Shown in pieces: positions 16,841 through 59,392 of a stretch of DNA of 64,000 nucleotides. The stretch comes from Candidatus Woesebacteria bacterium. GTDB taxonomy: Bacteria; Patescibacteriota; Microgenomatia; UBA8517. The notes under the pieces were generated by a model. It was not told the DNA's origin, ran no database searches, and worked only from the letters and a program-made list of their open reading frames with translations. Made by a program: the position numbers and the translations under genes. The stretch covers positions 996,145-1,060,144 of the forward strand of contig CP065002.1 of assembly GCA_016700095.1 (NCBI GenBank), given 5' to 3'. Each line of letters opens with the position of its first letter. Position 1 is the stretch's first letter.

Positions 16841-19324
16841 TTATTTATTATACTTTCCGAGATTTTCTAAGCTAAATTCTTCCTTGCCACTTCCGGGTAA
16901 TACCCTAATGACATCTCCGCTAACAATTTCCCCTTTTAGAATTGCTCTTCCGAATAAATCTCCCAACGTCAAATTGACGATTCTCGACATAGGCCTTGCA
17001 CCAAAAGCCGGATCAAATCCATCATGAGCAATTTTTTCAAGCAAGCTGTCTGTTATTTCCAGGTAGATATTATGTTCTAGCAGATTTTTTGAGAATTTCG
17101 TCACGAGCATTTTGGCAATTTTCAACAGGTATTCTTCCTTCAACGGTTCATAAACGACCACGCCATCAAAACGATTTAGTAATTCAGGTGAAAATATTCG
17201 TTCTTTTAAGACATAATCAATAACAGAAGTTTGCAGATCTTCACCCTTTATTCCTTGAGCTACCAGTTCACGGATATATTCGGCTCCTGCATTTGAAGTT
17301 CCAATTAAAAATAAATTTCTTCCAATAACAAGTTTCCCAAAGGCATCAGTCATTTGCCCTTCGTCAAGCAAGCGTAAAAACAGATTAAAAATATCATTGC
17401 TTGATTTTTCGAACTCATCAAGAAGCAGTAAACTTGCAGGTCTATTTTTTATGGCGGTAGTCAAAGTTCCGGGTTGATTTCTGTCCACAGAGCCAACCAA
17501 CCTTTCAAAACCTTCTTTGCCGGCATAATCAGCCATGTCAAAACGTAGAATTTTATCTTCCCCGCCGAAATAAACTCGTGACAAAACTTTAGCTGTTTCT
17601 GTTTTTCCTACACCGGTTGGACCAAGAAAAAGAAATGAACCGATTGGTCGTCGGGAGTCTTTGGAAATCGTCCGTGCACGGAGACTTTTTGCAATTAAAT
17701 TAACAGCCATTTCTTGGTTAATAAGTCCCTCGTGGATTATCTCTTCAAGCGAACCCAGTTGTTTTTTCTCGTCGTCAGTTAAACGCGTAAATGATATGCC
17801 GGTTTTTTCTGCCATGACCTTATCGACATCGCCAACAAGAACCGTCTTTTTCCTTTCTATTTGTTCAACATACAAAACAACCGCCTCTAATAGCTCAAGT
17901 GCTTTTTCCGGAAATGGCGTTTCTGTCAGATAATTATCGGATTCGTCCATTATCTTTCTGATTGCCGGAATTGTGATTACCATATTTTTTCTTTTTTCAA
18001 GTTGCACGGCAACATCCAGTGTAATTAAGGTTGCCTCCTCTTTGGTCGGTTCTTTAATTTCAATTGTTTCGAGATACTTTTTGAGTCTGTTATTTCGGAC
18101 TATATATTTCTCGTATTCATCCGGAGTTGTAATTACAATTAACTGCAAATTCTTTTTTTCAAGTAACATTTCAAAAACATCCGTAAAATCAACACCTTCC
18201 GCATCTTTATTTATCAGACGGTGGAAATCTCGAAACATGAGAATAATGTTTCCTGCGTAAGCAACTTCTTTAAGAACCAGAGTTAAGAGAGCTTTCTTGA
18301 AATTAATGTCGGCAGATTCGGACAGTAATGTATTCAAATCAAACCCAAGTATTCTTCGATATGCCATTTTTTGACCCAACTGACCAATTGAAGCTCGTCG
18401 TGCAAATTCCAATACTACCGTCTTTTTTCCGACACCTGGTTGCCCAACCAATACCACACCCGATCCCCCATTTAAAGACCGTTCCATGCGAGAAACTTCC
18501 TGCTCTCTTCCGACCAACCTATAGGAAAAAGATCGGTTTATACCTAAATCTTCAACGTATTTGTTTAAATTCGGAGTATACCCAAACATGGTTTCAAGCC
18601 CCACACTTGCTCTCCCCTCGGTTTGCGAGATAACTACACTTTCATCTTCCCTCATTTTATCCCACAGCGAAGCCGCTAAACACAGATCCTTATCAGTAAA
18701 ACCAAATTCTCTAAAGAATTGATCCGACCATAGTTTTTCGTCAACCAATCGCCTGATAATTTGTTCGAAGTTTGGTACAACCAAATCGCCAAATGCAATT
18801 TCTTTTCGGACTGCATTTTCTAGAATTGTTTTTACATCAACACCAATGTGCTCCAAAACAAATTCACCCGCTTTGCTAACAAATATCGCCTCAATCGGAT
18901 CACTTTGCGAATTTTGTATTTGATTAAGCAAAGCTTGCGCATAACGCACCGGATCTTTTGACCAACGAACGTATATCGGAACACTTAAAAACGGAAGTAC
19001 AAACCAGGCAAAAAGACCAAAGATACCTCCCAAAAAAGTAAGAAAGATAAGAACCAATCCTGCCAAAAACAACGAGATCCTCACAATCGCTCCGATAATC
19101 CTGGAAATTAGATTGAAACTAATTTTTTCAAAAATCTTTTGAAGATCAAAACCGGGAGATTCCTCTAAATCAATCAGTCTTTTCCAGGGAGAAAATGCCG
19201 TACGGATTAAAAATGGAAGCGAAAAATATTGGATGATCGAATCGAAAGAATTAAACCAATTTGTAACATAAATCTCCAACCCCTTTGTGTAATGCCATGG
19301 CAAAAATATCAGAATTTTATCCAT
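16841..19324 (-). CDS. Membrane-anchored double-AAA+ ClpA/ClpB-family ATPase (copy 1)
   Basis: N-terminal ~130 aa with the motif AFSPWKRL and 2 TM helices. AAA-1 Walker A is GQPGVGKKT, AAA-2 Walker A is GPTGVGKTE. A ClpB D2-small-like C-terminus. No Clp N-domain. Confidence 0.7.
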   Translation of the reverse strand: MDKILIFLPWHYTKGLEIYVTNWFNSFDSIIQYFSLPFLIRTAFSPWKRLIDLEESPGFDLQKIFEKISFNLISRIIGAIVRISLFLAGLVLIFLTFLGGIFGLFAWFVLPFLSVPIYVRWSKDPVRYAQALLNQIQNSQSDPIEAIFVSKAGEFVLEHIGVDVKTILENAVRKEIAFGDLVVPNFEQIIRRLVDEKLWSDQFFREFGFTDKDLCLAASLWDKMREDESVVISQTEGRASVGLETMFGYTPNLNKYVEDLGINRSFSYRLVGREQEVSRMERSLNGGSGVVLVGQPGVGKKTVVLEFARRASIGQLGQKMAYRRILGFDLNTLLSESADINFKKALLTLVLKEVAYAGNIILMFRDFHRLINKDAEGVDFTDVFEMLLEKKNLQLIVITTPDEYEKYIVRNNRLKKYLETIEIKEPTKEEATLITLDVAVQLEKRKNMVITIPAIRKIMDESDNYLTETPFPEKALELLEAVVLYVEQIERKKTVLVGDVDKVMAEKTGISFTRLTDDEKKQLGSLEEIIHEGLINQEMAVNLIAKSLRARTISKDSRRPIGSFLFLGPTGVGKTETAKVLSRVYFGGEDKILRFDMADYAGKEGFERLVGSVDRNQPGTLTTAIKNRPASLLLLDEFEKSSNDIFNLFLRLLDEGQMTDAFGKLVIGRNLFLIGTSNAGAEYIRELVAQGIKGEDLQTSVIDYVLKERIFSPELLNRFDGVVVYEPLKEEYLLKIAKMLVTKFSKNLLEHNIYLEITDSLLEKIAHDGFDPAFGARPMSRIVNLTLGDLFGRAILKGEIVSGDVIRVLPGSGKEEFSLENLGKYNK

Positions 19325-39935: not shown

Positions 39936-42368
39936 ATGGAATTTGTCAGATGGCATTACAGTAAGGGAATTAGTCATTACCTAAAAAGCTGGGAAAATAT
40001 ATTTGAGTCCACGCTCAAATACTTTTCCTTTCCTATTCTTTTTAGAACACTCTTCTCACCATGGAAGAGACTCGGCAAAACGCAAAAAAGTTCTGGGTTC
40101 AATTGGGACAAATTCAAAGATGATTTAAGCTTCAATTTTGCTTCCCGAGTCGTAGGTTTTCTTACTCGCACATCACTTATTGTGACTGCTGTAATTGTAC
40201 TGATGTTTTTAATGACTTTCGGGGTATTTGGTCTACTTATGTGGATAATGTTTCCGATAGCAAGTTATTCTAAATATAAAAGTGTACAAAAAAGACCTGA
40301 GTATTTCGTAGCGGACATCGTCGACAAAGCCTTCAAATCCGATAATCCGACAAAAAATATTTTCGACAATCAAGCCGGAAAATTTGTTTTAGATCATTTG
40401 GGATTGGATATCGAAACCGTACTGACAAGCTCGTCATCACACATTGCTCTTGATTATTCAAATAAGTACGTAGGATATGCACAACTACTTGCTCATTTAA
40501 TCCAGGGTGGGTTATTTTCTCAAAATTTCTGGCGCGACAATGATATACACTCCGATGACATGTTGCTTGCCGCAGAGATTTGGGATACACGTAGACTAAT
40601 TGAATCCGGTGACAATTCCAATTCAACTACCTACATAAAAGGCATCGGTGCTAATTTATTGTTTGGTTATACTCCCGTCATTGACCAGATAGGAAGCGAT
40701 TTAATATATGAAAGAAGTAAAGCTCCCATGCTTCGAGGTAGAGATGATGTTATGGCGCGAATAGATCGCATCCTTTCCTCAAAATCTAGCATGTTACTTG
40801 TGGGAATGCCGGGAGTTGGGAAAAAAACTTTATTACTTGAACTTGCAAAAAAACTCGACAAGCAGTATCAACGTTTGGTCGAGGTAAGCATTGTGAAACT
40901 TACTCAAGGAATTGCCGACAACAATGATAAAAAAGTAGCAATCCAAAATATGTTATCCGAGGGAGCCAGTGCGGGAAATGTTGTAATCGTACTAAAAAAC
41001 TTGGAACGCATAACGAATTTGGAATTTGAAGGAGTCGATTATACCGATGTTTTCGAAGAGTATTTATCCAAAAAAAATATTGTGTTAATTGCCATATCTA
41101 CACCTGAGGAATACGAGAAATATTTATCAAGGAATTATCGACTTATGAATTATTTTGAGAAAGTTGACCTGGAACCCTTAAGCCCGGAATTTGCAACCCA
41201 GGTACTTATTGATCGGGCTGCGGAATTAGAAAGCACTCAAGGTGTTACGATTCCGATTCCCGTATTGAGGAAAATGGTAATAACAGCCGATAATTTTTCC
41301 AGCTATTCTCCGTTCCCACAAAAAGCTCTGGAATTATTAGAAGCAAGTGTTTTGTACACTAAACAAAACAATTCAAAAATTGTCACGAGCGAAGATGTTA
41401 TCACGGTTACATCTGAAAAAACCGGCATACCAACCATCGCATTAACCTCTCAACATAAACATAAATTGGCAAACATGGAAAGCCATTTGAAAGAAAAATT
41501 AATAGGTCAGGACAGTGCAATTAGAATGATTTCCCAAAGTCTTAGATCACGCGCCATGGATGTCTCAACCGGCAACAAACCAATCGGAACCTTTTTGTTT
41601 CTTGGTCCAACAGGTGTGGGAAAAACAGAAACCGCAAAAGTTTTATCGAATGTCTACTACGGTCACGATGACATTATGCGTTTTGATATGGGGGAATATA
41701 TCGGCATGGAAGGACTTATTAAATTAATCGGTTCATTGCAGATGAATCAACCCGGAATATTAACGACTGCAATTAGAAACAAACCCGCGGGAATGATTTT
41801 ATTTGATGAATTGGAAAAAGCCTCAAAAGAAGTATTCAATGTTCTTCTTCCGCTCATAGATGAAGGGTACATCGTAGATGCTTTTGGAAGAAAAGTAGAT
41901 TGTCGCAATACCTTTGTCATTTCAACATCAAATGCCGGATCGGATTTGATAAACCAACTTATTGCACAAGGTACAACCGGTGATGAATTAAACGAACAGG
42001 TATTAGATTATATAATCAGAGAAAGAATTTTTTCACCCGAATTCATTAACCGCTTCGATGGCGTCGTTGTCTACCAACCTTTGACGTACGAAGAATTAAC
42101 CAAAGTAGCAAGTATAAAGTTAAATATTTTAAAAAGTCGCATGGCTGAGAAAAACATTTTTGTCGAGCTTCACGAAAGTCTACCGCAAAAAGTGGCTATC
42201 GACGGATACCATCCAACTTACGGAGCAAGGCCGATGAACAGAGTGGTAAATATGACAATCGCTGATTTGATTTCCCAGGCGATGCTGTCTGAACAAGTTA
42301 AGCCAGGTGATAGAGTAATTTTACTTCCGGGAAACGAGAAACTAGAATACAGACTGCAAAAGATTTAA
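39936..42368 (+). CDS. Membrane-anchored double-AAA+ ClpA/ClpB-family ATPase (copy 2, divergent paralog of 16841..19324)
   Basis: Same N-terminal LFSPWKRL motif and 2 TM helices. AAA-1 Walker A is GMPGVGKKT, AAA-2 Walker A is GPTGVGKTE. ClpB D2-small-like tail. Confidence 0.7.
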   Translation: MEFVRWHYSKGISHYLKSWENIFESTLKYFSFPILFRTLFSPWKRLGKTQKSSGFNWDKFKDDLSFNFASRVVGFLTRTSLIVTAVIVLMFLMTFGVFGLLMWIMFPIASYSKYKSVQKRPEYFVADIVDKAFKSDNPTKNIFDNQAGKFVLDHLGLDIETVLTSSSSHIALDYSNKYVGYAQLLAHLIQGGLFSQNFWRDNDIHSDDMLLAAEIWDTRRLIESGDNSNSTTYIKGIGANLLFGYTPVIDQIGSDLIYERSKAPMLRGRDDVMARIDRILSSKSSMLLVGMPGVGKKTLLLELAKKLDKQYQRLVEVSIVKLTQGIADNNDKKVAIQNMLSEGASAGNVVIVLKNLERITNLEFEGVDYTDVFEEYLSKKNIVLIAISTPEEYEKYLSRNYRLMNYFEKVDLEPLSPEFATQVLIDRAAELESTQGVTIPIPVLRKMVITADNFSSYSPFPQKALELLEASVLYTKQNNSKIVTSEDVITVTSEKTGIPTIALTSQHKHKLANMESHLKEKLIGQDSAIRMISQSLRSRAMDVSTGNKPIGTFLFLGPTGVGKTETAKVLSNVYYGHDDIMRFDMGEYIGMEGLIKLIGSLQMNQPGILTTAIRNKPAGMILFDELEKASKEVFNVLLPLIDEGYIVDAFGRKVDCRNTFVISTSNAGSDLINQLIAQGTTGDELNEQVLDYIIRERIFSPEFINRFDGVVVYQPLTYEELTKVASIKLNILKSRMAEKNIFVELHESLPQKVAIDGYHPTYGARPMNRVVNMTIADLISQAMLSEQVKPGDRVILLPGNEKLEYRLQKI

Positions 42369-49519: not shown

Positions 49520-49545
49520 AAAAAAAACTCCCTTTCGGGAGTTTC
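49520..49545 (-). terminator. Intrinsic terminator downstream of greA
   Basis: Minus strand GAAACTCCC-GAAA-GGGAGTTT followed by TTTTTTT. A second, weaker hairpin plus T-tract lies at about 49551..49595. Confidence 0.6.
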
Positions 49546-49664
49546 TCAACGCAAAAAAGACAAACTCCCGTCAGGAAGATGTCTTGTCCTTAGATTGTGA
49601 GTTTATTATATTTAACATTCAGGGTAATTTACATAAAAAATGATCTAGCGTCAACCGCCTAAAA

Positions 49665-51009: not shown

Positions 51010-51513
51010 ATGAAAATAACCGTTAGTGTAAATGATAATATGCAAAAAAATTACACATATTATCTAACCGAGCCTGTTGGGAAAAATTTTGATCCCGATT
51101 TTACACCGGAATTGACACCCAAAGACATGTTGGAGCTAGGAGTATTTGGGGGCAAATATATGACCGACTGTACAGACGAATTTCCGCAAGATTGGTTTAT
51201 CAAAGCAAAACTATCACCTCACAAAAAAGATATCTCACTAAATTACTTTGGAGTCGATGCCAGTCAATCACTTGCATTTTGGCAACGAAAGGGCTGGATA
51301 AACAAAAATGACCCACGGGGTTGGTTTCAGTGGTACTGCAGATATTACATGGGCCGGAGAACTTTAGACGACGATAGGCAAATCAAAAGATGGAAAGCCG
51401 TTAAACGCCATATCGCTCAGCTTAAGAAAAATTGCGCCAAACACAATTTGTCATGCCGCCCGCGACAACGACAAGCACTACTCCATTGGGCGTATGATTC
51501 AAGAAAGTTATGA
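51010..51513 (+). CDS. Hypothetical Trp/Tyr/Arg-rich protein of unknown function
   Basis: 167 aa. Distinctive GWINKNDPRGWFQWYCRYYMGRR...RQIKRWKAVKRH segment. No family recognised. Confidence 0.45.
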   Translation: MKITVSVNDNMQKNYTYYLTEPVGKNFDPDFTPELTPKDMLELGVFGGKYMTDCTDEFPQDWFIKAKLSPHKKDISLNYFGVDASQSLAFWQRKGWINKNDPRGWFQWYCRYYMGRRTLDDDRQIKRWKAVKRHIAQLKKNCAKHNLSCRPRQRQALLHWAYDSRKL

Positions 51514-51652: not shown

Positions 51653-51748
51653 CCTCTACCGACAATAGTCGGTAGCATCCGTCTTCTATTAAGGATTCGA
51701 TCTACAACCACTGATTGAAATCAGTGGTTGTAGACTTAACGAGAATAA
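51653..51748. repeat. Structured ~95-nt repeat element, copy 1
   Basis: CTCTACCGAC-aata-GTCGGTAG hairpin, then TCTACAACCACTGATT-gaa-AATCAGTGGTTGTAGA (16-bp stem), then GACTTAACGAGAATAA. About 90% identical to copy 2. Confidence 0.7.
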
Positions 51749-51857
51749 CCAAATATTAAATTAAGTCGATTAATCAACCAAGGTGACATCTGGTCACAGA
51801 TGACAAAATACGGTAACGGGTTTATAATCAAATCTCTATTTGCTTTAGAGTTTTACC

Positions 51858-53129
51858 ATGTCAATCGCACTATTGTCGCTTGCGGCTTTGTTGTTCGTAA
51901 TAATAATAAGCTGTGTAATTCAAAGGTTAAATCCCGGATTGTTATCATTATTGGCTACTTTAATTATTGGCACGTATGTAGCAAAACTGCCGCTCAATGA
52001 TTTAATTAAAACTTTCCCCATCTATTTATTTTTATTACTCATTTCAATGGGTATAATATTCGGGGTTGCTCAAAGCAATAAAAGCATGCACGTGCTTACT
52101 TTTAAAGCAATAAATTTGATACGGGGGAGAACCTTACTTTTACCGATTCTTTTTTTTCTTCTAGCTTTTGGTATTTCGGCTGCTGGTCCTGGAAATATCG
52201 CAAGTGTTGCTCTACTTGCTCCACTTGCCCTACCACTTGCAAAACAATACAAGGTTTCATCTTTGATAACCACAATCATGATCTGCACCGGTGCAAATGC
52301 AGGAGCGTTTTCTCCATTTTCGCCAACGGGTATTGTTGCTATTGGTTTAATGCATAAAATCAGTATTGACGAACAACTAATCTGGGTCGTGTTTATCGCT
52401 GCAGCTTTATTACAAAGCGTCTCAGCATTAGTCGCGTATTCTTTTTTCCTATTACGATCAAAAAGGCGTGGATTTAAAGAAACAGAGAACGAAAACACAA
52501 CAAACAACAACGCTAAATTAGACAAACGACAAAAAATGACTTTAGGGTTTATCGCCTTATTAATTATTTTGGTAACAGTTTTCAAAGTACAACTTCTTAT
52601 TGCTTCCGTATCGATTGCGGTACTTATGTTTATTTTTGATCTTGCCGACGAAGAGAAAGTGCTTAAAAAACTTCCTTGGAGTACGATTTTAATGGTAACG
52701 GGAATTGCAATTCTAATTGGTTTGCTTGAAAAAACCGGCGGTTTAGATATTGCAACAACGTTTATTGCAACAAATACCAATCCCAAAATGGTTAATGGTG
52801 TCTTGGCAACAGTCACCGGAGTTGTTTCTGCTTACAGTTCATCTTCCGGAGTGGTAATGCCGGCCTTCATTCCATTGATTCCCAAACTTGCAATGCAAAT
52901 GGGCATTATCAACATGGTTCCAATGGTTATTGCAGTCGCCGTAGGATCACATATGGTTGACGTTAGTCCACTATCCACGCTTGGAGCTTTATGTATTGCA
53001 GCGATTGACTCAAAGACTGAACGTACACGAGTTTTTAGATTGGTAATGATGTGGGGACTTGCGATGTCTTTAGTTGGCGGATTACTTGCCTATCTTTTTC
53101 TCGACATCGGGTATAACTTAATCTTCTAA
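51858..53129 (+). CDS. Polytopic ion-transporter-superfamily permease (ArsB/NhaD/CitMHS-like; family uncertain)
   Basis: 423 aa with about 11-12 TM helices and Gly/Pro-rich re-entrant-loop-like segments (GPGNIASVALLAPLALPLA; SSSGVVMPAFIPLIP). Confidence 0.5.
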   Translation: MSIALLSLAALLFVIIISCVIQRLNPGLLSLLATLIIGTYVAKLPLNDLIKTFPIYLFLLLISMGIIFGVAQSNKSMHVLTFKAINLIRGRTLLLPILFFLLAFGISAAGPGNIASVALLAPLALPLAKQYKVSSLITTIMICTGANAGAFSPFSPTGIVAIGLMHKISIDEQLIWVVFIAAALLQSVSALVAYSFFLLRSKRRGFKETENENTTNNNAKLDKRQKMTLGFIALLIILVTVFKVQLLIASVSIAVLMFIFDLADEEKVLKKLPWSTILMVTGIAILIGLLEKTGGLDIATTFIATNTNPKMVNGVLATVTGVVSAYSSSSGVVMPAFIPLIPKLAMQMGIINMVPMVIAVAVGSHMVDVSPLSTLGALCIAAIDSKTERTRVFRLVMMWGLAMSLVGGLLAYLFLDIGYNLIF

Positions 53130-53177
53130 TTAATCTTATTATCCGTGGATATCGAAAGTAATTTAAACAATACTACT

Positions 53178-54302
53178 TTATGCCTTAGAAGTGTTAACGA
53201 TACTTTGACGCTTTGAATGTTTCAATCCATTTGAGCCATTCTTTTCTTCCCAATCACCCGACTGTTGCGAGAGAATTGAAAAAAGCGAACATTCCCTTAT
53301 GTCTTTTGCATTTAAGATAAATTGCATCACCCTCTCACTCCCAATTCCGTACCCCGCGTGCGGTTTTGTTTTTCCCGCCATAATAATGTCTTCCAAATAC
53401 CAGGTAAAATCGCTATATGTTCCGCCTCTTTTTTTGTGAAGATCAAACATTGTTGAGGTGATTAATCTTTCCTTGAGTTTTTTCCCATCATGTTCGCGCA
53501 CCGCAGACCCGACCGCTTCACCGGCGTTTGGTAAAATTAGATCTGCGCTAAGGACAACCTTGGGATCGTCCTGCGATACTTTCATGTTAAAAAATTTAAT
53601 TTCTTTCGGATAATGTGTAATAAATACCGGAATCTGTCGCCCACTTTCTTTCTGGTTACCGTTTAATATATCGACTACTTTTTGCTCATGTTCCGCTTTT
53701 AAATCATCGCCAAAAGCTAAACTTGTAAATCCTGACCATTTAAGTAAAATAACCGCCTCCGAATAAGGAATTTGATAAAAGGGTTTTTGTGTTACTGTCT
53801 TTAACCAACCAGTATCCAGATTGTAGACAGTCTCAAGTTCGTGAGAGCACGACGCAACTACATTTGATACTAGTGCTTTGACAGCCGACTCCACATGCGA
53901 TAAAAGTGTTGTAAACATTTTATTCTCACTGTAATTTGCCAAACTCATTCCCGCTATCGTGCAATCAAATTCCTCCTCCACTAATCTAAACTGCCTCAAA
54001 TGCCTTACGTCTTCTGTTTCTTCGTCACGACCACTGTGGATTATCGTATAAACTCCGGGGAAATATTGTAGCGACTGTTCCAATGATAACTGTCCTGTCT
54101 GTGTAAAAAACAATGGAAGGTTTAGTCTATTTCCAACTTTAAATAGTGTATCGACATTTTCGCAAGCTCCCGTAATTCCCACAATTTCGGGGACATCTAC
54201 ATATGTAAGCCCTGTTTTTCGATAATGATCATGAATTGCATAATTGATACTGGAGTTTATTTTTATCAGAGTGGGCAGTTTACAGCTTACTTTATTCGAC
54301 AT
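53178..54302 (-). CDS. Stand-alone class II aminoacyl-tRNA-synthetase-like catalytic core (AsnA-type asparagine synthetase / AsxRS paralog)
   Basis: Motif-2-like LRQFRLVEEEF and motif-3-like AGYGIGSERVMQFIL. No anticodon-binding domain. 374 aa. Confidence 0.45.
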   Translation of the reverse strand: MSNKVSCKLPTLIKINSSINYAIHDHYRKTGLTYVDVPEIVGITGACENVDTLFKVGNRLNLPLFFTQTGQLSLEQSLQYFPGVYTIIHSGRDEETEDVRHLRQFRLVEEEFDCTIAGMSLANYSENKMFTTLLSHVESAVKALVSNVVASCSHELETVYNLDTGWLKTVTQKPFYQIPYSEAVILLKWSGFTSLAFGDDLKAEHEQKVVDILNGNQKESGRQIPVFITHYPKEIKFFNMKVSQDDPKVVLSADLILPNAGEAVGSAVREHDGKKLKERLITSTMFDLHKKRGGTYSDFTWYLEDIIMAGKTKPHAGYGIGSERVMQFILNAKDIRECSLFSILSQQSGDWEEKNGSNGLKHSKRQSIVNTSKA

Positions 54303-54312
54303 GTTTTAGTTC

Positions 54313-54340
54313 AAAAAAAAAGAGCCATCGGCTCTTTTTA
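54313..54340 (-). terminator. Intrinsic terminator, bidirectional in form
   Basis: AAAAAAAA-AGAGCC-atc-GGCTCT-TTTTAT. On the minus strand the hairpin is followed by T9. It lies downstream of 54505..56856. Confidence 0.55.
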
Positions 54341-54504
54341 TATACGACTATTATTAATAGTCCAAAAGTTATCTTTCTTCAAAATCTTTTTCATCTTTCC
54401 TAACTATTAAATTTATCAACACACCATATAAATTGTCAACTATGTAAATTAACTTGAACAAATTTAAATACACAAGATTTTAAATGGAGAAATAACTTAG
54501 AAAT

Positions 54505-56856
54505 TTAATTTACACATTTACATCTAGTCCAGTCCGCCACAATTCCGGAGCAGGTATTTGATCCGGCAGAGTACATGATTTGCGTACACGTAGCAATACC
54601 GCCAGACAGCGGGAGTAACTGACAACCTTGCGATGTACGATCGTAGTACTTTCCATTTATTCCCAGGGAGTCAGTACCAATAGACGTACACGTCAGTCCT
54701 ATCGAATTACACCTGGTGTTGCAGTTCTGATTAGTGCCGGAATTCAATATGACTTGCGGTTGCGGTGTTGGCGGAACCGGTGTTAACGTTGGGGGAACTG
54801 GAGTCAATGTGGGCGGTACTGGTGTTAACGTTGGGGGGATTGGAGTTGGGGTTTGGTTGTCATCAACTGTTACTCTGAATGTTGCCGTATCAAACTGTCC
54901 AAATTCATCGGTCACTTTTACTACAAAAGTATTCAAGCCAACAGCTGACAAAGGTACCGACGAAGAAACCATCAATCCATTACTGCTTCCATCCAAAGTC
55001 AACCAACTTGGGCCAGACACAATACTATAAATGTCGGTATACGGATTCTCATCTATTACATGAGGCACTAAGTAATATGAGTAGAAACTTCCAACTGTAC
55101 CATTGTATGAGGATATAATTGGATCAGCATTGAAATATGGTGCAGCATTAGGCACAGTGGTTGGAGTAGGAGTAGGAGTAATAGGACTTGGTGCAACATT
55201 ACATTTCGCACCAAGATTGTAGGTATGAATAGCGGAGGGTTGTGGATTAGCAGCCGGGGACAAATTTATGTCCAAATTCAGTTGCTGATAAATATTATAA
55301 GTATTATACGGCGGATAACTTAAGTCTGTGTAAGATCTCAAATTACTTGCGTAGTATGTTGAACCATCCCTGGCAACATAAAAAGTAATAATTGCGTTAC
55401 GATAATTATCAATAGAAATTCTTGGCACATTCACGGTGTATTGTGTATTTGAAGTTTGAATCACAACTTGACTGGGATCCAACACGAGATCAGGATGAGC
55501 ACCATCATTGTAAGTTCTAAAACTAAGTGTTAGATAGTTTGTCGATGCATTGGTAATCAATGGGGTATAAACACCGTTATAATAATCTCCATATACTTTA
55601 TCAGTACCCTCAAGGAAGGTGCTGTTGTCGCTCATTTTTCCACCAACGAAAATGCGAACTCCCTGATAATTTGCAGGATTAACAGGATACACGTTTACCA
55701 CATTATTCAATGCCAGAGAAACTTGTGAAGCAACAGTTGCATGACATGTGTTTTCTGCAGGAGGTGCTATCACACTAATATTTGTCGGTGAAACGACTGA
55801 GTAATCTACTAAATCAATCTCGTTACAAACACTTCCATTGCAACTGGCTTCTTTTAAATAATGACTAGACCCTGTAGAAAAATTTGTATCCAAACTTATA
55901 GGATAACTTCCCGGAGTTGCATTATTGGCATTGAGAAAGTAATAAATGATTGGATCTGCCTCTACATCGTAAAGATTTAAATATCCAGAATCAACATAAG
56001 CTGATGTGAGAATTTTCGACACCTCAGGGGTAACACTGTAATGCATACTACCATTTATATAATTTTTTGTACCTGCATATGACATGTAAGTAAATGCGTT
56101 TGTATTTATGTTGAAATGGTCGACAAATCTTGTAACTCTATGGGCACTAGTTCCAGGCTCGGTAATATAGAGAGGAATATGAAACCGATCACCTTGCGCG
56201 ATCGTAACTCCCCTGACTCCCAGCTGTACAGTAGCATTAGGCTGTTTAGTTAAAACTAACTGTGGAGCTGTTTTTGTCTCTCGTGAAGAGTAAGTCGCAC
56301 TACCGTTTGACAGTGTCTCAAGTAAAAAGATCACTCTAAAGGCATCATTTTTTTGTACAACCTCGGATACATCCAATTCAACATAACCGTCGACACTCTT
56401 TTTAGTGTTATCAATAGTTCCGATTAATTTTACCGGATAGGAATCAATTACCTTTAAATTATTGTCTGTTTCTTTCACGCTCCCACCTAATTCATATACG
56501 TTAACAGTTGCAAGATCTGATTTGACTAGCTTAAGACGAAGTACGGCTGTAGTTTTTTGGTCACCGGTTGGCACATCGAATCCGATGACTACTTTTGATT
56601 TCGCATAGGCTGTTGATGATACAACCAAAGTAGTCGATGTCCCGGAATTTATTTTAGGTGGATTGTTATATAAAGTTACATCAAACTTGGGATTATACTT
56701 GCCAGCCAGAGCGGCACGTGTTGATAAATCTGTTGGACGAGATACTATCCATACTGAAACAAACAATGAAAAAATCAGAAGAAATGGCGTAACCAATTTC
56801 AGGTATTTGGATTTGTTAATCCATTCACCAGAAAAAAATACGCCTAACCGCTTCAT
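54505..56856 (-). CDS. Large surface protein A: N-terminal signal-anchor, beta-rich body, (PTLTPVP)n linker, C-terminal Cys-rich domain
   Basis: 783 aa. Its N-terminus (MKRLGVFFSGEWINKSKYLKLVTPFLLIFSLFVSVW) is paralogous to that of 57291..59189. The C-terminal domain has about 12 Cys. Confidence 0.6.
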   Translation of the reverse strand: MKRLGVFFSGEWINKSKYLKLVTPFLLIFSLFVSVWIVSRPTDLSTRAALAGKYNPKFDVTLYNNPPKINSGTSTTLVVSSTAYAKSKVVIGFDVPTGDQKTTAVLRLKLVKSDLATVNVYELGGSVKETDNNLKVIDSYPVKLIGTIDNTKKSVDGYVELDVSEVVQKNDAFRVIFLLETLSNGSATYSSRETKTAPQLVLTKQPNATVQLGVRGVTIAQGDRFHIPLYITEPGTSAHRVTRFVDHFNINTNAFTYMSYAGTKNYINGSMHYSVTPEVSKILTSAYVDSGYLNLYDVEADPIIYYFLNANNATPGSYPISLDTNFSTGSSHYLKEASCNGSVCNEIDLVDYSVVSPTNISVIAPPAENTCHATVASQVSLALNNVVNVYPVNPANYQGVRIFVGGKMSDNSTFLEGTDKVYGDYYNGVYTPLITNASTNYLTLSFRTYNDGAHPDLVLDPSQVVIQTSNTQYTVNVPRISIDNYRNAIITFYVARDGSTYYASNLRSYTDLSYPPYNTYNIYQQLNLDINLSPAANPQPSAIHTYNLGAKCNVAPSPITPTPTPTTVPNAAPYFNADPIISSYNGTVGSFYSYYLVPHVIDENPYTDIYSIVSGPSWLTLDGSSNGLMVSSSVPLSAVGLNTFVVKVTDEFGQFDTATFRVTVDDNQTPTPIPPTLTPVPPTLTPVPPTLTPVPPTPQPQVILNSGTNQNCNTRCNSIGLTCTSIGTDSLGINGKYYDRTSQGCQLLPLSGGIATCTQIMYSAGSNTCSGIVADWTRCKCVN
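54765..54862 (-). repeat. About 4 tandem copies of a 24-nt unit encoding the PTLTPVPP linker
   Basis: Plus strand: ggcggaaccggtgttaacgttggg repeated with minor variation. The mirror ORF reads GGTGVNVGG x3. Confidence 0.7.
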
Positions 56857-57191
56857 ATATTACTAATAATGATTTGTCGTTTAATTAATGTCAATGGTTC
56901 ATTTAATTTGCACCTTAAGAAATATAGGTTGAACAATAGATGGGCATGCCACAAGAATCTGTGTTTTTCTGAAAGATGTTTCAAAAGAGTTTATTCACTC
57001 CTTCGCGTAAATCACACTTATAGGCACAATTTTTTTACGAAGTATGTACAAAAATCCATCAACGTTAACCACATCAATTTGGATATATATTTAATCAAAC
57101 TCTAAGGGGATATTATTTTCAACCCCATTAAACTACCAAGGTGTCACAAAAACAACGCTACCCCAAAATGAGAAATATTGTTAGGAATGAT

Positions 57192-57287
57192 TCTCTACCG
57201 ACTTTAGTCGGTAGTATCCGTCTTATGTTAAAGATTCGATCTAAAACCACTGATTGAAATCAGTGGTTTTAGACTTAACGAGAATAA
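57192..57287. repeat. Structured ~95-nt repeat element, copy 2
   Basis: Same two hairpins and tail as copy 1. The long stem carries a compensatory change (5' arm CTAAAACC / 3' arm GGTTTTAG, versus CTACAACC / GGTTGTAG in copy 1). It ends 3 nt before the stop codon of 57291..59189. Confidence 0.7.
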
Positions 57288-57290
57288 AAA

Positions 57291-59189
57291 TTATTGACAA
57301 CAAAGTTCAAAGGTCGAATTAACGTTACACGATTCATGATTTGGAAGACCACACCTTCCCGTTCTGGTTTTACCAAGATAACATACTAAACCAGCTCGGC
57401 AATCGGTCGTCTCTCGGCATAATCCATAACATGAACCAAAAGCAGGAGTGGCGGTGGGTGGTACCGGTGTCGCAGTTGGTGGTACTGGTGTCGCGGTGGG
57501 TGGTACTGGTGTTAGTGTTGGCGTAATTGACGGTGTTGGGAATACAGGTTGATCACCAAACACACATTCTCTAGCGCGCCACGCATTGTTGAACGATTCT
57601 ATTGAATAGGCAAACGATAAGGTTGCAACTTTGTTCAAAGCACTGACTCCGGTACTCGGATACACATCAATCTGATGTGTCGTCGATGTAACGTTATTAG
57701 CATGATACGAAGAACCATCTGTCGTGGGATAAAAAGCCATCCATTCATCATGTGTGGAATTATTGTATATTTGCACGGGAGGTACATAAATTGTTTTTTG
57801 TTCACCATCTATCATCAAAGAAAGAGTTCGTGGTTCAAAATTATGAGTAATTGCTTGAGGACTTGTTGGTCCATGAAATGCGAGTATTAAATGCTGACTT
57901 GCACCAGTTTGTAGCTGTGTATAAGTCGTGTTTTCGAGTGTTCCGTAATGTATCGTATTTGCCGACGTGGGTGGGATCGTGTTATTTGTCACTCCATAAA
58001 TTTCAATCTTAGCAAACAGTCCGGTAGGCCCGCCTGTATCAATTTCTGCATACGGAATATTTGCTTGCACATTTGTTACGGCATTGCTTACCGTAAGGCT
58101 TCTATGGCTTTCTGAATAAGGCAAATTGCAATACGGTACATTGTTTGTGATAGAAATCTGACTAGAACCGTTTACTGTTGCGTCTGTAATTGGAACAGTA
58201 TAAGGATTGATCAGTAAACTTCCACTTACCAAATTGTTGTTATATACAGTACCCACTGTTGCATTATCAGGAACCTTATACCACAGCTCAACCATATCGC
58301 CATCAATTTCCAAGGGACTAGTCGCTTGATTTGCCGTAATACCAAGAATTGGCGGAGTCAGAAAAGTTAGGTAGCAATTATGATTAGTTACTATACACGT
58401 ACTCTTTTTAATAAACCCCAAATAACTTAGTCTGGAGTCGGGATTTATCTGAAATTCGATATAACTAATAGTATCCTGTGGTGAAACAATATTTGATTTG
58501 AGTGGTACATAATCACCCGGCCTTGCTACTACATTTCCGTTTTTGACAAGCGTAAAGACGGTGCTTGTCGAAGTCGGAGAATTTAACACTAACTGCGGTT
58601 TAGTAGACGATTCTCGTGAATAATACGTATTTGTTCCCGTAACTAAGTTTTCAAGTAGAAAATATATCTTCACATTATCAACGCTATTTACCGTTTCGGT
58701 GACATTTATTTCCAAATATCCGTCAGACGATTTTTTCGAATTCGACATTTTTCCAATTAATTTTGTCGGATATGTGTCCAATACTTTCAAACTAACATCC
58801 GTCTCGCCTATCTCACCCATTAACAAATATACATTTACATCAGGAGTAACTGTTTTTTGTGGTTTTATTCTAAAAACAGCAGATTCATAGTTTCCATTTC
58901 CCGGGAAATCAAAACCAACAACTACCTTGGATTTTGCAGTTTTGGAAATTGAGGAAACAAGTGTTGTCGACTTATTCGGATCAATCTTTACTGCAGAACT
59001 ATATAAAGTCGTGTCAATTCTCGGGTAATAAATATTTACAGAAGAAGCCTTCGGTCTAAGCATACTCGGGCGAGATACAGCCCAAACCGATATGAAAAGT
59101 GAAAAAATTAATAGAAAGGGAGCAACCAGTTTTAAATACTTATTCTTTACTATCCATTCACCAGCAATAAACGCGTTTATACGCTTCAT
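57291..59189 (-). CDS. Large surface protein B: paralog of 54505..56856 with a (PTATPVP)n linker and a different Cys-rich C-terminal domain
   Basis: 632 aa. Its N-terminus (MKRINAFIAGEWIVKNKYLKLVAPFLLIFSLFISVW) matches that of protein A, and the body is alignable (KSKVV[IV]GFD...). C-terminus: AFGSCYGLCRETTDCRAGLVCY...CCQ. Confidence 0.6.
   Translation of the reverse strand: MKRINAFIAGEWIVKNKYLKLVAPFLLIFSLFISVWAVSRPSMLRPKASSVNIYYPRIDTTLYSSAVKIDPNKSTTLVSSISKTAKSKVVVGFDFPGNGNYESAVFRIKPQKTVTPDVNVYLLMGEIGETDVSLKVLDTYPTKLIGKMSNSKKSSDGYLEINVTETVNSVDNVKIYFLLENLVTGTNTYYSRESSTKPQLVLNSPTSTSTVFTLVKNGNVVARPGDYVPLKSNIVSPQDTISYIEFQINPDSRLSYLGFIKKSTCIVTNHNCYLTFLTPPILGITANQATSPLEIDGDMVELWYKVPDNATVGTVYNNNLVSGSLLINPYTVPITDATVNGSSQISITNNVPYCNLPYSESHRSLTVSNAVTNVQANIPYAEIDTGGPTGLFAKIEIYGVTNNTIPPTSANTIHYGTLENTTYTQLQTGASQHLILAFHGPTSPQAITHNFEPRTLSLMIDGEQKTIYVPPVQIYNNSTHDEWMAFYPTTDGSSYHANNVTSTTHQIDVYPSTGVSALNKVATLSFAYSIESFNNAWRARECVFGDQPVFPTPSITPTLTPVPPTATPVPPTATPVPPTATPAFGSCYGLCRETTDCRAGLVCYLGKTRTGRCGLPNHESCNVNSTFELCCQ
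57453..57525 (-). repeat. About 3 tandem copies of a 24-nt unit encoding the PTATPVPP linker
   Basis: Plus strand: ggtggtaccggtgtcgcagttggt repeated. Confidence 0.7.
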
Positions 59190-59392
59190 ATATTAATAAT
59201 GATTTGGTATCAAGCCAATGTCAATGACTCATTTTGAGCATAGTAATATGTCACTATCCAATATTTTTCATGCCTATCAGACAAAAGTTTATTTTCCGAC
59301 AAGGTACTTAATCTACGGCAATAAAACACGTGGCATTGAAATTAACAACTAAGTGTATTTAGTATTCAAGCTATGGATAAAAGTCTTATAAT

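Follow-up and report, generated by a model that had tools for sequence, protein, structure and literature searches.

A 64,000-nucleotide stretch of contig CP065002.1 of a Candidatus Woesebacteria bacterium (assembly GCA_016700095.1, positions 996,145 to 1,060,144; this whole stretch is called the window and is numbered from its first base) contains two intergenic copies of a discrete, non-coding 95-nt element that folds into two hairpins followed by an invariant tail. The copies have the same orientation, lie 5,539 bp apart and are identical at 87/95 positions (92%) in a gap-free alignment. Our tentative reading, favoured among those weighed below, is that the element is a lineage-specific palindromic repeat copied as a unit, similar to repetitive extragenic palindromes (REPs) or miniature inverted-repeat transposable elements (MITEs), and that its hairpins are probably mere 3'-end structures.

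Two copies of a discrete structured element

The repeat had been described in an initial annotation made from the sequence as two copies about 90% identical. The gap-free alignment bears out this figure, and the places given there (51653..51748 and 57192..57287) were right, with both starts off by one base (Table 1). The borders of the element are sharp: local alignments of the 300-nt flanks were no better than those of shuffled sequences (231/500 and 202/500 shuffles), which also speaks against a larger segmental duplication. The repeat goes far beyond what chance would give: for sub-patterns of 24 nt and 32 nt, 0 matches are expected in shuffled sequence.

The three parts listed in the initial annotation (a short hairpin, a 16-bp hairpin and a conserved tail) are present in both copies, although the second hairpin is folded as 15 bp with a 4-nt loop (16-nt arms with 2 nt between them). 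Through the change in its loop, hairpin 1 of copy 2 becomes a 9-2-9 palindrome. The two copies of hairpin 2 are the only long perfect palindromes in the 64 kb. A CTAC...GTAG pair is found at the foot of hairpin 1 in both copies and of hairpin 2 in copy 1, in each case inside the stem, and the corresponding foot of hairpin 2 in copy 2 reads CTAA...TTAG; apart from the CTAC foot the sequences of the two hairpins are unrelated. Folding was equally good for the two strands, with z-scores of -8.6 and -5.8 on the plus strand and -8.0 and -6.9 on the minus strand. The 8 differences between the copies are distributed over the loop of hairpin 1 (2 differences), the 25-nt linker (4 differences) and a single stem pair of hairpin 2 (2 differences).

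Table 1. Positions of the 95-nt element, its parts and its neighbours in the window, and of the HSG25 repeats that share the core of hairpin 2.
Feature	Position	Strand	Sequence or remark
Copy 1 of the element	51654..51748	+	Covariance model score 129.9 bits
Copy 1, hairpin 1	51656..51675	+	CTACCGAC-AATA-GTCGGTAG, 8 bp
Copy 1, hairpin 2	51701..51734	+	TCTACAACCACTGATT-GA-AATCAGTGGTTGTAGA, 16-nt arms 100% complementary
Copy 1, invariant tail and element border	51735..51748	+	CTTAACGAGAATAA
Copy 2 of the element	57193..57287	+	Covariance model score 131.6 bits
Copy 2, hairpin 1	57195..57214	+	CTACCGACT-TT-AGTCGGTAG; A->T change in the loop gives a ninth complementary position
Copy 2, hairpin 2	57240..57273	+	TCTAAAACCACTGATT-GA-AATCAGTGGTTTTAGA; AAAA/TTTT around the core
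Copy 2, invariant tail	57274..57287	+	CTTAACGAGAATAA, same as copy 1; ends 3 nt before the stop of the minus-strand gene
Gene upstream of copy 1	51010..51513	+	167 aa, IPM62_05195, no Pfam family; copy 1 starts 140 nt past its stop
Promoter-like site of the permease gene	51800..51828	+	ATGACA-17-TATAAT, 11/12; 52 nt past copy 1
MatC/CitMHS permease gene	51858..53129	+	Downstream of copy 1
Surface-protein gene A	54505..56856	-	CBM96 surface protein
Promoter-like site of surface-protein gene A	56866..56894	-	TTGACA-17-CATTAT; about 300 nt beyond copy 2, reading with transcription
Surface-protein gene B	57291..59189	-	632 aa, IPM62_05215; copy 2 is directly 3' of it
HSG25 composite repeats with the core	L001 5251-5375; L002 5715-5839; L004 300-410; L006 6530-6580

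The compensated stem pair

The paired double change that had been noticed in the long stem was confirmed: the pair C51705-G51730 of copy 1 is replaced by A57244-T57269 in copy 2. When 8 random substitutions were placed in simulations, all 23 pairs were left Watson-Crick in 0.47% of the cases, and intact pairing together with at least one compensated pair was obtained in 0.09%. Given that all 23 pairs are intact in the observed element, this indicated that the palindromy is being maintained. A formal covariation count is powerless with two sequences, and the observed value was reached by 229/500 shuffles.

The initial annotation took the double change as direct evidence of selection on structure, which was overstated. 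Through template switching during replication a hairpin can regain its pairing in one mutational step (Monttinen & Loytynoja 2022, PMC8794818), and since such a change can come about in this way, it does not prove selection on RNA structure. The replacement of C-G by A-T involves two transversions with no wobble intermediate, and a double transversion of this kind in a perfect palindrome is what template switching yields in one step; the altered loop by which hairpin 1 is extended in copy 2 fits the same process. The single compensated pair can be taken as a hint of structural selection, thin as one event in two sequences must be, and it cautions that one such pair in a perfect palindrome should not be read as proof of selection on RNA structure.

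Genomic setting and transcription

Both copies lie strictly between open reading frames (ORFs), each in the gap that separates a stop codon from the promoter-like site following it. The placement of copy 1 between the 3' end of one gene and the 5' end of another was correctly seen in the initial annotation (the genes for the 167-aa protein and the permease, both on the plus strand), as was the distance of 3 nt between the end of copy 2 and a stop codon, namely the TAA of gene B (57293-57291). After neither upstream gene was any other strong hairpin or canonical terminator found before the next promoter. With respect to local transcription copy 1 is in sense and copy 2 in antisense orientation, a difference that speaks against a strand-specific RNA.

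The locus tags run on without a gap at both sites, so that nothing is annotated at either copy, and the proteins of 167 aa, 374 aa and 632 aa are identical to IPM62_05195, IPM62_05205 and IPM62_05215. The window as a whole is ordinary chromosome, with genes for SecA, RF-1, FtsEX, ClpB-like proteins, aminoacyl-tRNA ligases, GreA and glycogen enzymes.

Coding capacity and known families

The element has no coding capacity and could be assigned to no known family. A 20-codon open frame is common to both copies, but a start codon is present in copy 2 only, and in copy 1 an in-frame TGA occurs three codons upstream of the shared frame. No internal promoter or terminator was found in the conserved unit. 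Rfam 15, the search of which had been proposed in the initial annotation, gave 0 matches in the whole window at the gathering score, and a permissive Rfam search of both loci returned generic sub-threshold hairpin matches only. ARAGORN detected no tRNA or tmRNA in the window; a tRNA-like T-arm resemblance (GGATTCGATC) was likewise ARAGORN-negative and does not fold as a T-arm.

Among the sub-threshold matches, psRNA14 (RF02351) scored 35.2 and 34.2 bits on the plus strand and 31.2 and 27.7 bits on the minus strand, as compared with a gathering score of 60. Hairpin 2 of the element has the ACAACCAC/GUGGUUGU arms and the A-rich tetraloop of the first hairpin of this model, whereas the second hairpin of the model is unmatched and both strands match, so that the element is not a member. 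The similarity (51698-51768 and 57234-57314) is real in hairpin 2, and the differences near the stem top are complementary to each other. In the literature searched no paper on psRNA14 was found.

A template/variable pair of a diversity-generating retroelement was rejected, given that, whichever direction or strand is considered, only 3-4 of the 8 differences affect an A, no reverse transcriptase Pfam hit was obtained and both copies lie outside ORFs. When the ends of IS200/IS605 elements or palindrome-associated transposable elements (PATEs) were considered, the two hairpins were dissimilar, and no tnpA or tnpB was present in the window.

Distribution outside the genome

The source genome is not among the scanned GTDB or JGI sets, neither scan having returned the two copies of the window. 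The exact 20-nt core of hairpin 2 (CCACTGATTGAAATCAGTGG) was found among 185,579 GTDB species representatives in Anaerolineales bacterium HSG25 and in two further places that are likely chance hits in coding DNA. A 22-mer gave one match in JGI metagenomes, on an unrelated contig (L008) in which the same hairpin forms an A6/T-tract terminator. Plasmid and phage collections gave no match to a 121-nt query in distant mode, and three pattern scans of viral contigs returned nothing. The absence, or near absence, of the core from the GTDB, JGI, viral, phage and plasmid sets indicated that the element is not a conserved RNA. For the neighbouring 167-aa protein and the protein resembling asparaginyl-tRNA synthetase (AsnRS), the closest available relatives reach only 68-78% identity, on contigs that lack synteny; surface protein B, used as a query, retrieved no protein other than itself.

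The favoured reading

Several roles had been suggested for the element in the initial annotation, and of these we favour the REP/MITE-like repeat, with a recombination site and a small non-coding or cis-regulatory RNA disfavoured. The RNA roles are disfavoured because the unit holds no promoter or terminator, the copies are oppositely oriented to transcription, no Rfam family matches and the core is nearly absent from GTDB. According to the favoured reading the 95-nt unit of two hairpins and invariant tail would have been copied into two intergenic places as one self-contained module, resembling in its behaviour the dispersed repeats of REP, bacterial interspersed mosaic element (BIME), PATE or MITE type. 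Such a module may be tolerated only between genes, in either orientation, where it would follow closely on a stop codon and precede the next promoter. Its perfect stems would be kept by palindrome-templated repair during replication, that is by template switching, possibly with the help of selection. Any effect would be independent of orientation: the hairpins would stand at the 3' ends of the transcripts of the 167-aa gene (copy 1) and of gene B (copy 2), where they could impede 3' exonucleases or read-through. That the unit is discrete, where it lies, how it is structured and that it has neither coding capacity nor a known family is shown by the data; the mode of copying, a copying agent, an effect on RNA and further copies are all things that we infer, and membership of the element in a REP/REPIN or MITE family is not established.

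Several observations weigh against this reading. The copy count proposed in the initial annotation was run with nhmmer --max and with a covariance model built from both copies over 67 kb of the 1,274,238-bp contig (the 64-kb window plus 3.2 kb on its right side), and it gave 2 copies and no third or degenerate one; the remainder of the window holds few repeats. Two copies 5.5 kb apart in the same orientation also fit one local duplication. No transposase, Y1 transposase (Y1_Tnp), integrase or reverse transcriptase was hit by Pfam in ORFs of at least 80 aa in the window and in the overlapping contig L013 (see below). A MITE in the strict sense was rejected in the absence of terminal inverted repeats: the most that the ends CTCTACCGAC... 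and ...CGAGAATAA have in common is ATTCTC/GAGAAT, which in copy 2 extends beyond the conserved unit and in copy 1 is imperfect. No target-site duplication was seen at either site, the flanks being GACGTC|...|CCAAAT for copy 1 and AATGATT|...|AAATTA for copy 2, and the two sites share no target motif. With regard to a 3'-end function, neither copy was listed on either strand in a terminator scan for a U-run after the stem, and the canonical terminators with hairpin and U-run elsewhere in the window (49521-49547 and 54312-54338) look different from the element.

Alternative explanations

An alternative that we regard as unlikely, although it survives best, is a selected cis-acting double hairpin in the 3' untranslated region, which would stabilize or process the transcript (e.g. 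as an RNase III substrate) or weakly terminate it, and which would have been duplicated because it is useful. Both copies follow a stop codon and precede the next promoter-like site, no other strong structure is present in either gap, and the pairing within the copies is fully preserved with one compensated pair. The stem-loop is stable at the 3' end of a gene in both copies. The change of the stem pair in copy 2 turns ACAA/TTGT into AAAA/TTTT and thereby gives the shape of an A-tract, a hairpin and a T-tract, and the unrelated contig L008 uses the same hairpin as a clear terminator. The core of copy 2 (CCACTGAT-TGAA-ATCAGTGG) lies between AAAA and TTTT in the lower stem, which together with its location in the gap from a stop codon to the next promoter resembles a bidirectional terminator, in a weak form. 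The core stem is followed by 4 U in copy 2 and by UUGU in copy 1; the element differs from such a terminator in that the U-run criterion fails and copy 1 has TTGT, and a terminator would have no need of the second hairpin, the 25-nt linker and the conserved tail. Since no U-run adjoins the full stems, a role in termination is weak, and the view of the initial annotation that the element is not a simple intrinsic terminator holds by the scan, with the AAAA/TTTT shape of copy 2 as a nuance; canonical terminators are moreover available elsewhere in the window. The strand that is transcribed differs between the two sites, yet the unpaired tail and the linker are conserved even where they would be read as complements. 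Perfect stems of 15-16 bp are atypical of evolved RNA elements, and the conservation lacks support from relatives, the flanking homologues being 68-78% identical and non-syntenic.

It is less probable still that the copies are the remnant of a local duplication, or substrates of recombination (att-like, or for unequal crossing-over), that bound an excisable or amplifiable 5.4-kb cassette. They are direct repeats, 5,539 bp apart and the only copies in the 67 kb; one border is occupied by surface genes in tandem that are distantly related and have promoter and N-terminal regions in common; and contigs of the same sample in Logan break at the centre of hairpin 2 in copy 2. The block contains the permease gene, an AsnRS-like gene and the CBM96 surface-protein gene A. 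Its GC content matches the surroundings, and no flank homology points to a larger duplicated segment. No integrase or recombinase is encoded in or near it, and with no tRNA or tmRNA in the window as a target an attL/attR pair was rejected. The copies have diverged by 8%, whereas att repeats are usually identical, and the Logan contig L007 runs unbranched through copy 1, so that there is no sign of a deletion junction. The bracketing of a meaningful 5.4-kb block, as put forward in the initial annotation, was thus not upheld: the genes are ordinary, and recombinase, tRNA target and flank homology are all missing.

A functional structured module specific to lineages of the candidate phyla radiation (CPR) was given slightly less weight again and is improbable. 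Such a module could be a strand-independent signal for RNA 3' ends or processing, or a site recognized by as yet undescribed machinery for copying or recombination, able to move or reshuffle gene cassettes such as the surface-protein block in a genome with hardly any other repeats, and the hairpin 2 core in HSG25 would then reflect shared mobile ancestry. The homology with HSG25 is however not established, because the core alone is shared, the GC content differs and 1-7 chance matches are expected (see below).

We consider it very unlikely that the copies form a pair of paralogous genes, each encoding a trans-acting small RNA about 95 nt long. Although the same plus orientation, the very stable fold, the invariant tail, the compensated pair and the sub-threshold resemblance to hairpin 1 of psRNA14 (35 bits) would suit such genes, the conservation is confined to the element, neither a promoter before it nor a terminator after it being conserved, and the psRNA14 score is far from the threshold (35.2 vs 60), is obtained on both strands and does not extend to the second hairpin. 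The exact core is absent from the GTDB representatives of other Patescibacteria, and copy 2 would be antisense to the last 3 nt past the stop of the gene with no obvious target.

Binding sites for a protein on double-stranded DNA (operator, nucleoid-type or partition-type palindromes) with no role as RNA deserve hardly any credence: the near-perfect palindromes of 9-2-9 and 16-2-16 preserve their palindromy on both strands and a switch in gene orientation and GC skew is close by (about 59.3 kb), but a perfect palindrome of 34 bp is far longer than the usual operators, no regulator gene is adjacent, and an origin or partition site was rejected in the absence of a DnaA-box cluster near the copies and of a canonical parS.

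Neighbouring genes and other features of the window

A motif ACCAAGGTG(A/T)CAC occurs at 51778-51789, 30 nt downstream of copy 1, and at 57124-57137, 55 nt upstream of copy 2. It is located just inside both ends of the bracketed block, possibly by chance, and beside copy 1 it belongs to a small palindrome, GTGAC-N5-GTCAC, that adjoins the permease promoter.

Contigs of run SRR11674018 in Logan match the window at 100%. Two of them, L016 (54406-57262) and L013 (57259-67200), meet at the centre of hairpin 2 in copy 2, where each of them stops and they overlap by only 4 nt; L007 is unbroken through copy 1. The break at 57259-57262 could be due to a drop in coverage at the palindrome, to a variant or to a rearrangement.

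The surface-protein genes A and B, called paralogous in the initial annotation, have in common a stretch of about 170 nt at 71% DNA identity (56735-56904 and 59068-59234) that includes the promoter, the start codon and the N-terminus; as proteins they are otherwise only 27% identical over 159 aa. Periodic repeats of 21 nt are shared near the 3' ends of both genes (54759-54863 and 57448-57529, given on the plus strand).

The AsnRS-like gene (53178-54302, minus strand, 374 aa, IPM62_05205) encodes the catalytic core of a class II aminoacyl-tRNA synthetase. Its best NCBIfam matches are AsnRS and AsnA, all far below the cutoff, and most of its homologues are about 500 aa long with an N-terminal MGS domain (PF02142), which is missing in the window version and in a minority of the others. 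Upstream of this gene on the minus strand, a promoter-like site (54439..54410) is followed by an 18-codon mini-ORF (MKKILKKDNFWTINNSRI*, 54394-54338) with three Asn codons, two of them adjacent, and then by a canonical terminator (AAAAAGAGCCGATGGCTCTTTTTTTTT, 54312-54338) that ends about 10 nt before the ATG of the AsnRS-like gene. As far as can be judged from the sequence, the region 54312-54440 looks like a candidate leader-peptide attenuator with Asn codons.

The 167-aa protein upstream of copy 1 (51010-51513) has no Pfam or NCBIfam family. It shows more than 70% identity to all 120 matches listed (the best 120 of 8000, E <= 0.001), and the few named sources of these homologues span phyla (Woesebacteria, Pacebacteria, Acidobacteria and Magnetospira), which is unusually strong conservation for an unnamed protein.

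Gene orientation changes from mostly minus to plus at about 59190-59392, in the divergent gap between surface-protein gene B and a GHMP kinase gene, and the GC skew changes sign at about 54-60 kb. DnaA-box-like 9-mers with at most 1 mismatch number 42 in the window as compared with 22 expected, and are unclustered. Two ClpB-like AAA+ genes (16841-19324, minus strand, and 39936-42368, plus strand) are inverted paralogues, 67% identical over 526 nt (41579-42096 vs 17131-17648).

Comparison with known repeats

The repeats of HSG25 (JAUCGA01) illustrate how modules of this type behave and are not counted as homologous. In that genome, which is crowded with nested-hairpin repeats, the identical core is present in four intergenic places, each downstream of housekeeping genes and within a composite repeat of several hairpins (Table 1). 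Everything outside the core differs, the phylum is unrelated and the GC content is 43-51% as compared with 37-38%; BLAST of the HSG25 loci L004 and L006 against the window gave no alignment. Perfect 9-2-9 palindromes occur at about 4-25 per Mb, and 1-7 identical ones are expected by chance in the 596 Gb. Three of the HSG25 loci (L001, L002 and L004) contain three perfect or near-perfect 9-2-9 palindromes that are exactly 30 nt apart; in L006 the core is nested in a longer stem, whose additional pairs are G.T when read on the strand bearing the TGAA loop. The HSG25 loci also hold several further families of nested-hairpin repeats with perfect stems of 15 bp.

With MITEs, among them nested-hairpin types such as Correia, RUP and Nezha, the element shares a length of about 100 nt, lack of coding sequence, an intergenic position, a long hairpin, sharp borders and restriction to a lineage. 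It differs from them in having no terminal inverted repeat beyond 5-6 nt, no target-site duplication and no parent insertion sequence.

The likeness to REPs, which in BIMEs and REPINs are reportedly moved by the Y1 transposases known as REP-associated tyrosine transposases (RAYTs), extends to more features. REPs act as stabilizers of mRNA 3' ends; they occur in tens to hundreds of copies per genome and their stems are imperfect. Like them the element is short, non-coding and extragenic, forms stable palindromic hairpins in a composite unit, is located just past stop codons in either orientation, and lacks terminal inverted repeats and target-site duplications. CTAC...GTAG stands at the foot of hairpin 1 in both copies and of hairpin 2 in copy 1. 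In contrast to REPs it was seen in 2 copies in the 67 kb rather than in tens to hundreds, with no RAYT gene in the same 67 kb; its stems are perfect over 15-16 bp, with the GTAG inside the stem and lost in hairpin 2 of copy 2; and its host is a CPR bacterium with a genome of 1.27 Mb. No description of REP- or MITE-type repeats in CPR was found in the literature searched, which was a limited library. If the full genome should contain many copies, this would be a documented REP/MITE-like family in a tiny CPR genome and would raise the question of what mobilizes it, whereas a pair that is truly only two would be a minor local curiosity. So far, nothing that was found places the element outside the known kinds of small intergenic palindromic repeats, and its CPR host makes it mildly interesting among them.

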